Positions 8,000 through 8,843 of a stretch of DNA of 54,435 bases are shown here, in pieces. The notes below the pieces were generated by a model. That model had not been told where the DNA came from, did no database searches, and saw only the letters and a program-made list of their open reading frames with translations. The first letter of the stretch is position 1; each line of letters starts with the position of its first letter. The DNA is from Escherichia phage PhiR12_1, in sequence record PV340549, one strand, 5' to 3'. Both the position numbers and the translations under genes were made by a program.

Positions 8000-8024
8000 T
8001 AAAAAAGCCCTCACATTGGAGGGC
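8000..8024 (-). terminator. Rho-independent terminator (tL-like) downstream of the 8159-8782 gene
   Basis: Minus-strand hairpin gccctc...gagggc followed by T6 (plus-strand aaaaaa 8001-8006). Confidence 0.6.
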
Positions 8025-8086
8025 AAAGAAGATTTCCAATAATCAGAACAAGTCGGCTCCTGTTTAGTTACGAGCGACATTGCTCC

Positions 8087-8114
8087 GTGTATTCACTCGT
8101 TGGAATGAATACAC
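8087..8114. promoter_or_regulatory. inverted repeat gtgtattca-N10-tgaatacac
   Basis: 9-bp perfect arms at 8087-8095 and 8106-8114; no T-run, so more likely a protein-binding or RNA structure site than a terminator. Confidence 0.3.
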
Positions 8115-8158
8115 AGTGCAGTGTTTATTCTGTTGTTTATGCCAAAAATAAAGGCCGA

Positions 8159-8782
8159 TTATGCGGCCTCGGAAGGAAGTCCAATCATCTTATTCAAATC
8201 TTCTACCCGTAAAGCAGGAAGTGCTGTACTTGCTTTATCTGCTTCTTTTGGTAGCAATTCTTTGCTTTCAGGCCAAACTTCAATAAGTCGCTTAACTGTT
8301 GTGACTGATTTCAAAGCAGCCCATACATTTGATTCGATATCCTTTTTCTTGGCTTCAAGTTTTTGTTGCAATGCGCAGATTTCATCAAACCTTTTTGTTA
8401 TTTCGTGTTCTGCGTCAAACATGCATTTATCTTTGATCGGAGTAGGGAGCAATATATCTTTGCCGTTGCCGTCTTTCCCATATGAATGCCATCCAACCCT
8501 TCTGCCAGATACAGTCAGATAAATTGAAGTAGAACTAACATCGTATGAGTAAAATGAACATCCCATCTTTCCAAGTTCTTCACTTATAGCTACCAACTTG
8601 GATGATAACTGATCCACTTCCTCAGTTTTCTTTTTACCGCCAAACGCAATAACTCTGGCGTCAAGTGCAAGCTGGTTCTTTAACTTTGTTACTTCTTCAA
8701 GTTCAGTGAACACCCCGGACTTAATTAAAGCGTTACGAGCGATTTCCTCTTTCATTCTCGTAGTTAAGCGGATTGATGACAT
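8159..8782 (-). CDS. hypothetical protein (moron immediately downstream of N)
   Basis: ORF track 8159-8842; probable start MSSIRLTTRMKEEIA with gaggaa RBS; AT-rich by eye; own terminator; no family recognised. Confidence 0.55.
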   Translation of the reverse strand: MSSIRLTTRMKEEIARNALIKSGVFTELEEVTKLKNQLALDARVIAFGGKKKTEEVDQLSSKLVAISEELGKMGCSFYSYDVSSTSIYLTVSGRRVGWHSYGKDGNGKDILLPTPIKDKCMFDAEHEITKRFDEICALQQKLEAKKKDIESNVWAALKSVTTVKRLIEVWPESKELLPKEADKASTALPALRVEDLNKMIGLPSEAA

Positions 8783-8843
8783 ATTAATTCCTCTCAAATA
8801 AGTGGTTTGCTGCCTAATTTCATTTTCTGGCGACCAACACAAG

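Follow-up and report, generated by a model that had tools for sequence, protein, structure and literature searches.

An Nmad5-family gene in the ral slot of the lambdoid Escherichia phage PhiR12_1

The gene considered here, at positions 8159-8782 (minus strand) of a 54,435-nucleotide stretch of Escherichia phage PhiR12_1 DNA (PV340549; the whole stretch is hereafter the window), lies where two described systems meet. One is Ral, the restriction-alleviation protein of phage lambda, encoded downstream of the antiterminator gene N and reported to boost modification by type I systems. The other is the Nmad5 protein family. Nmad5 stands for nucleotide modification associated domain 5, a name that, according to a later account of the original work, goes back to comparative genomic work on base-modification clusters in phages (Iyer et al. 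2013, via PMC11846954). In Dhillonvirus phages, escape from the defence system Tmn maps to Nmad5 (K216E in SM_A8 and K296E in SM_S22), and reverting the Nmad5 mutation restores sensitivity; deletion of nmad5 gives a viable phage that does not escape Tmn, while the Dhillonvirus gene itself could not be cloned and is apparently toxic (PMC11846954). This was the single experimental study of Nmad5 that our literature search found: the studies of SECphi18 escape deal with Ksap1 and the portal protein rather than Nmad5, and searches on PhiR12, the lambda terminators tL1/tL2 and PF18757 returned nothing relevant.

The PhiR12_1 locus combines features of both systems. Its first gene after N encodes a member of the Nmad5 family, and in other E. 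coli prophages the same two flanks hold ral or other small genes, in line with an earlier note on the window which had placed this gene in a host-interaction slot. We regard the identity of the gene and the architecture of the locus as virtually certain. The gene, the family and the mosaic slot are all in databases already, and the locus does not represent a new kind of element.

Identity of the gene and its family

The earlier note had proposed a gene of about 207 codons, beginning MSSIRL, as the first after an N-like antiterminator, and had not recognised its product. The gene holds up, as does the identity of its upstream neighbor (8844-9230), which is N by both PF25694 and phrog_271. The product, on the other hand, can be named: it matches the Nmad5 profile, PF18757, over its full length (profile positions 1-206 of 206, 238.7 bits against a gathering cutoff of 27, E = 8.6e-71), and E. 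coli copies are already entered in RefSeq as 'Nmad5 family putative nucleotide modification protein'. It also matches phrog_1965 (E = 4.8e-83), a PHROG family of unassigned function. The motifs characteristic of the family (R5, R43, G48-G49, G93, T162, L166, WPE, ELxP and LN..G.P) are all present. A GAGAGG Shine-Dalgarno sequence lies 7 nt upstream of the reading frame, whose start methionine is common to homologues; an alternative upstream TTG start at 8842 was dropped because homologues begin MSS(I/V)RL. The median dN/dS of 62 IMG/VR alleles, 0.27, indicates that the gene is real and under purifying selection. The IMG/VR locus search gave only near-identical lambdoid copies, and it served for this estimate and for the mosaic boundaries described below rather than for sampling diverse contexts.

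Some copies depart from this pattern. An internal stop is found in 3 of 80 IMG/VR copies (L052, L078 and L082), and in Stx2a-converting phages (e.g. LC616067, 11131-11652) the main Nmad5 match covers residues 34-207 only, while the record holds a second match elsewhere. Judged from these sequences, some lineages appear to have a decaying or rearranged gene.

Nmad5 is a large family. When 1.84 billion representative proteins were searched with a profile, 2254 matched at E <= 0.001, 131 of them at E <= 1e-30. Among the hosts of the family are Escherichia, Pseudomonas, Vibrio, Bordetella, Acinetobacter, Dinoroseobacter and Pseudanabaena. All 150 matches listed of the 2254 are single-domain proteins, almost all of about 200 amino acids, and no domain fusion was present among the 120 matches listed in a second search that used precomputed domain content. 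Scanning 148 Nmad5 relatives against Pfam and PHROGs revealed no second related family. For the window protein itself, a scan of NCBIfam gave no match, and PADLOC-DB, a collection of known anti-phage defence proteins, gave 0 families at E <= 1.

The base composition is as the earlier note described it, AT-rich: the GC content of the gene is 39.9%, whereas the window averages 50.7%, and this value falls within the lowest 3% of 624-bp windows, though the whole early-left region is low as well (40-48% GC).

The exchangeable cassette and its predicted expression

Comparison with other lambdoid phages and prophages resolves the locus into a variable unit and two conserved boundaries, as follows.

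7996-8156: conserved lambdoid block forming the left boundary of the slot, 96.9% identical to lambda (J02459) 33920-34082
8159-8782, minus strand: Nmad5-family coding sequence, 207 amino acids plus stop (PF18757, phrog_1965)
8783-8792, minus strand: cassette-specific ribosome-binding site, GAGAGGAATTAAT before the ATG, read off the sequence
8793-8846, minus strand: conserved 54-bp linker after the N stop codon, forming the right boundary of the slot and sharing 96-100% identity with prophages that carry ral or other cargo (L012-L015)

The left block (161 bp) corresponds to the intergenic region between ea10 (ssb) and ral in lambda. On the right, homology to prophages with other cargo stops at 8793. 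With both flanks conserved around differing cargo, the exchangeable unit is 8157-8792, that is, 636 bp comprising the Nmad5 gene and its own ribosome-binding site. The alternative cargo between the same flanks includes ral (PF11058, E = 1.6e-48, in prophage L012), a 147-amino-acid gene, a 156-amino-acid gene and a set of three small open reading frames (ORFs). Among 5426 complete E. coli genomes, the left block is present in 2242, ral in 875, the 156-amino-acid cargo (phrog_1636) in 598 and the Nmad5 gene in 211.

The 77 IMG/VR copies compared for their boundaries give a similar picture: upstream homology mostly ends at the N stop codon, and downstream homology ends either just past a hairpin at the cassette junction or just past the main terminator. 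These break points indicate that the cassette assorts freely with respect to both the N allele and the module downstream. In the prophage of E. coli ET151 (L013), the conserved flank is itself split at window 8119-8129, the part matching 8129-8156 lying about 490 bp away from the remainder, with extra small ORFs between; prophages of this type thus point to a slot with at least two insertion points.

The region around the gene is rich in potential RNA structure, with 7 terminator-like sites in 7400-9700 compared to 2.2 +/- 1.3 in shuffled sequences, and the 231-nt intergenic RNA folds with a z-score (z) of -5.9. The principal elements are listed below in the direction of transcription.

8141-8170 overall, minus strand: terminator-like junction hairpin (8151-8170 followed by TATTTTT) with the Nmad5 stop codon in its loop; 7 bp with 5 GC pairs, -11 kcal/mol
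8085-8116, extending to 8077-8124, minus strand: long hairpin; 14 bp, -21.8 kcal/mol, z -7.4
8001-8024, minus strand: intrinsic terminator; stem 8007-8024 (GCCCTC/GAGGGC) and a run of six T at 8001-8006; -11.1 kcal/mol, z -3.4
7967-7986 (7957-7986 overall), minus strand: third terminator-like hairpin, shortly before cIII; stem of 8 bp, -9.9 kcal/mol, z -3.9

The terminator and the inverted repeat (given as 8087-8114) cited in the earlier note are thus both real, and for the repeat 0 of 200 shuffles fold as well; the junction hairpin and the third hairpin had been missed. What is not supported is the description of the gene as a moron with its own terminator, as the terminator and the repeat cited for it both lie within the block that is 97% identical to lambda 33920-34082, and no promoter-like site was found in 8760-9240. 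The lambda counterpart of the terminator lies at about 33925-33950, and the element is probably the homologue of lambda tL2a, which maps near 33930. The long hairpin (8081-8120) is likewise conserved in lambda (about 34005-34045) and in thousands of E. coli prophages, and sits between the cargo slot and the terminator; an Rfam scan of 7000-10000 gave nothing credible for it or for the rest of that interval. The junction hairpin is a composite, with a 5' arm made of the last codons of the cassette and a 3' arm and T-run provided by the flank common to lambda. The sequence at the same place after ral in lambda folds to -4.3 kcal/mol only. If the Nmad5 gene has a terminator of its own, it would be this junction hairpin rather than the one at 8001-8024.

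The surrounding operon provides the context for expression of the cassette.

10800-11507, minus strand: cI
9694-10719, minus strand: ORF of 341 amino acids between cI and the candidate pL, i.e. at the rexAB position
9663-9680, minus strand: GC-rich bidirectional terminator-like hairpin downstream of the 341-amino-acid ORF
9441-9469, minus strand: candidate pL promoter (TTGATA, 17 nt, CATTAT), the sole promoter-like site upstream of N on this strand
9357-9371, minus strand: boxB-like hairpin GCGCTGACAAAGCGC, candidate nutL, read directly off the sequence
8844-9230, minus strand: N antiterminator gene (PF25694, E = 1.5e-15; phrog_271, E = 1.9e-39)
7935-8158: non-coding stretch of 224 bp between the Nmad5 gene and cIII
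7764-7934, minus strand: cIII, the next gene of the operon (phrog_550, E = 1e-22), after which come the recombination genes

A consensus scan of the minus strand between 8760 and 9240 gave no sigma-70-like promoter even at 8 of 12 matches. The linker contains neither promoter nor terminator and is unstructured (z +0.55), and the only hairpin within N is a weak one of 5 bp at 8913-8925. With no promoter of its own and no terminator separating it from N, the Nmad5 gene is expected to be transcribed from pL together with N, and early co-transcription of the two genes is, on this sequence evidence, somewhat probable. The first terminator-like hairpins (8141-8170 and 8001-8024) come after the Nmad5 gene and would keep transcription out of cIII and the recombination genes for as long as N antitermination is lacking; since these are the first credible intrinsic terminators, Nmad5 is a candidate for production at the same early stage as N, ahead of the remaining, antitermination-dependent part of the operon. 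The boxB-like hairpin is presumably a nut site of P22 type, which suggests that an N of P22 specificity has been joined to lambda-type downstream sequence.

Several other features of the phage deserve mention. The window is a lambdoid phage that matches Escherichia phage PhiR12_2 (PV340550) at 99.9% identity over 401-39063 and at about 98.5% over 42266-54432; the sole dissimilar segment, about 39063-42266, lies in the tail-tip region and contains, at 40818-41175, a 358-bp copy of antirepressor-region sequence (record 15718-16075). In the tail-fibre region, two genes that the PhiR12_2 record labels 'tail fibers' are separated by an insertion sequence, which consists of a transposase gene and an ATP-binding helper gene (record 45682-47963; window about 48220-50510). 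The ORF at 6519-6992 (minus strand), which adjoins an Abc2-like anti-RecBCD gene and a recombinase annotated as Bet, ends in DDSIPF, resembling the C-terminal tail of bacterial SSB. The 341-amino-acid ORF (9694-10719) matches phrog_6191, to which no function is assigned in PHROGs, and has the GenBank label 'T2SS GspM containing protein'; it has no match in Pfam or PADLOC. We consider it a better candidate than the Nmad5 gene for a prophage-expressed exclusion or defence gene.

Predicted structure and candidate function

The window protein (23 kDa) is near neutral, having an isoelectric point (pI) of 8.3, with 33 basic and 31 acidic residues, and a DNA-mimic role was rejected on these grounds. 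It is soluble, with no membrane segment and a maximum 19-residue Kyte-Doolittle hydropathy (KD19) of 0.58. The SieB-like exclusion role raised in the earlier note is at odds with this: lambda SieB is a membrane protein, and a membrane exclusion protein was rejected as the Nmad5 sequence lacks any hydrophobic segment and its AlphaFold2 model is all-soluble. That model, built with an alignment of 148 diverse relatives, has an alpha/beta fold predicted with high confidence (mean predicted local distance difference test score (pLDDT) 91.5, predicted template modelling score 0.82). It consists of long helices at residues 8-22, 24-46 and 50-72, a beta hairpin at 86-100 with short strands, another long helix at 127-158, a small helical module at 163-184 and, after a low-confidence linker, a last short helix at 194-200.

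Residues conserved across the family are R5, I14, A18, K21, R43, G48-G49, G93, T162, L166, W170-P171-E172, E175-L176, P178, P189, L196-N197 and G201-L-P203. The tail reaches a pLDDT of only 57-69, yet it is highly conserved, as we would expect of a docking peptide. No set of conserved H, C, D or S residues suggestive of catalysis emerged from the family alignment; H126 and E127 are kept among close relatives and not family-wide. Given the lack of family-wide catalytic residues and of any fusion to another domain among the matches listed, we expect Nmad5 to be a binding protein rather than an enzyme. When the sequences of solved structures were queried, both the protein on its own and the 148-sequence profile returned only coiled-coil or designed-protein noise, and the predicted fold showed no meaningful match among solved structures and no similarity to any enzyme fold.

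The Dhillonvirus escape mutations can be placed on this model. When both phage genes are aligned with the window protein, the mutated lysine falls at R165, directly before L166 and the WPE motif, a position that is K or R in 112 of the 148 family representatives. This marks the C-terminal basic helix as a putative functional surface, while the action of the wild-type protein is left unaddressed by the escape mutants.

The genomic contexts of distant relatives provide a further line of evidence.

Yuavirus (M6-like phages): between aGPT-Pplase1 and a thymidylate-synthase homologue, in a thymidine-hypermodification cluster
Ithacavirus: flanked by ThyX and primase
Metagenomic contig L100: after a primase-polymerase and followed by dCTP deaminase, exonuclease and dNMP kinase
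L103: adjoining a 3'-5' exonuclease and DNA polymerase A
L102: after an SNF2-type helicase
L104: in the early-left operon of a temperate phage, with an MT-A70 methyltransferase gene two genes downstream
L098: surrounded by small early genes, an Acb2/Tad1-like gene lying eight genes upstream
L002: next gene downstream of a cI-like repressor
Salmonella phage SPN3UB: within the nin region
Dhillonvirus: a lone opposite-strand gene among head genes

What these contexts have in common is a location among early or DNA-metabolism genes; no partner is constant. Linkage to nucleotide-modification genes, which the Pfam model does not require, is seen only in distant relatives and is absent at this locus. 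Neither a modification enzyme in general nor, specifically, a 5-hmdU synthase, DNA kinase or aGPT-Pplase is annotated in the near-identical PhiR12_2, as judged from the record annotation and not from an exhaustive hidden Markov model scan.

Taken as a whole, these observations are best explained, in our tentative view, by an early, non-enzymatic binding protein for host takeover or counter-defence that is carried as a cassette in the ral slot. Under this explanation, Nmad5 would be made from pL with N, as early as N itself, and would work as a binder and not as a catalyst, probably binding through the C-terminal module (T162, the K/R dyad at 164-165, L166, W170-P171-E172, E175-L176 and P178) together with the flexible tail bearing L196-N197 and G201-L-P203. 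Its target would probably be conserved across Proteobacteria, either DNA or a protein of DNA or nucleotide metabolism or of immunity, and the likely outcome would be to aid host takeover or counter-defence in the slot that lambda uses for Ral. This reading draws on the interchangeability with ral, the expected timing as early as N and the independent assortment of the cassette from phage modules, the last of which points to a target that is in the host or universal; it also draws on the apparent toxicity of a relative to E. coli and on a single charge reversal in a relative that alters the outcome against a defence system. The earlier note would have counted confident homology to an established non-defensive early protein against such a role; the homology found is instead to a named family of putative function. 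The functional component of this reading, a counter-defence or host-takeover role, is possible, with the chances leaning somewhat against it.

A number of points weigh against this reading. The argument from the ral slot is one of guilt by position, with every occupant besides Ral likewise of unassigned function. For an anti-defence protein, Nmad5 has an unusually wide distribution and unusually high conservation, and in virulent phages it usually lies amid replication or pyrimidine-metabolism genes, which a DNA-metabolism helper fits at least as well. As deletion of nmad5 is without effect on Tmn sensitivity, wild-type Nmad5 is neither the sole trigger nor an inhibitor of Tmn. In addition, early co-transcription is argued from consensus scans only, which leave room for Rho-dependent termination or weak promoters.

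The main rival is such a helper: a non-catalytic accessory on replicating phage DNA that presents DNA to, or recruits, enzymes of modification, replication or recombination and that, in a lambdoid phage without modification enzymes, could act on those of the host, much as Ral is reported to boost type I modification. The modification, replication and nucleotide-metabolism genes around Nmad5 in Yuavirus, Ithacavirus, L100, L102, L103 and L104 favor it, a broad host range and a strongly conserved motif would suit a target in a core process, and the slot shared with Ral is compatible with it. We nevertheless find it doubtful, given that no modification enzyme is annotated in the records of this phage, that the cassette assorts independently of every neighbouring phage module and that only 211 of the 2242 slot-bearing E. 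coli genomes carry Nmad5, which makes it dispensable. Moreover, the Dhillonvirus gene stands alone on the opposite strand among head genes and its deletion is viable, while early and replication neighbourhoods hold most phage accessory genes anyway. The helper and the early binder for host takeover or counter-defence converge if Nmad5 promotes protective modification, as Ral is reported to do. The family name would instead suggest an actual enzyme that modifies nucleotides or DNA, and in M6-like phages the linkage to aGPT-Pplase clusters agrees with the Pfam and RefSeq label; this is very unlikely for a family without conserved catalytic-type residues or similarity to any enzyme fold, which moreover occurs in lambdoid phages, not known to modify bases. 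Published in-vitro reconstitutions of thymidine hypermodification reportedly did not need Nmad5, which counts against an enzyme as well. Most improbable among the readings is a prophage-expressed moron that excludes superinfecting phages in the manner of SieB or Rex. The low GC content of 39.9%, the terminator-like hairpins directly after the gene and the presence of sieB after N in lambda all speak for it, but the gene lies downstream of a repressed pL with no promoter-like site found, its product has neither a membrane segment nor a PADLOC match, and the family is common in strictly virulent phages. Both the enzyme and the prophage-exclusion readings are thus poorly supported.

The early-binder explanation can be taken further, in a form that we rate as unlikely in its entirety: Nmad5, carried by more than 2000 protein clusters at 50% identity, may be an early binder of new fold that blunts host immunity or DNA-processing enzymes in many hosts and is interchangeable with Ral in lambdoid phages, with the basic helix before WPE (R165) as the contact surface whose charge reversal defeats Tmn. 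As a variant, Nmad5 could promote protective modification as Ral reportedly does, which would explain its linkage to modification genes elsewhere.

The finding itself is largely ordinary, comprising a known family, a known kind of mosaic slot and a terminator that is common lambdoid sequence. Its value is as a lead into a large family (2254 representative clusters at E <= 0.001) whose predicted fold lacks a meaningful match among solved structures. The lambdoid copy is a convenient test system, being in the ral slot, apparently as early as N, in cultivable K-12 phages (PhiR12_2, HK542 and mEp235), and a result obtained with it would help interpret both the Tmn-escape mutations and the 'modification-associated' label.

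Comparison with known systems

With the listed members of its family, the window protein shares the stand-alone build of about 200 amino acids and the C-terminal WPE, ELxP and LN..IGLP motifs; it differs in lacking a modification-gene neighbourhood and in lying directly after N in a lambdoid pL operon. The Dhillonvirus proteins (SM_A8 CDS7 and SM_S22 CDS6) are homologous to it in both the N-terminal helix and the C-terminal half, with 33% of residues identical over 100 amino acids, whereas they are longer (254-334 amino acids) through a large insertion in the beta region, and Tmn escape is known from the Dhillonvirus form only.

Morons, in the sense of Hendrix and Juhala, resemble the Nmad5 gene in being extra genes of lower GC content that are present or absent between conserved flanks of related phages. 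In contrast, the Nmad5 gene has no promoter of its own, the main terminator is common operon sequence, and the gene swaps with other cargo rather than being inserted between otherwise adjacent genes. The closest positional counterpart is lambda Ral (PF11058), whose activity is documented. Ral has 66 amino acids compared to 207 for Nmad5, the window protein has no PF11058 match and no sequence-family relationship between the two was detected, and the junction hairpin of the Nmad5 cassette is absent from the lambda-like ral prophage L012. Nevertheless, Ral and Nmad5 share one slot: both are preceded by N, followed by a lambda-type terminator block and bordered by the same two flanks.

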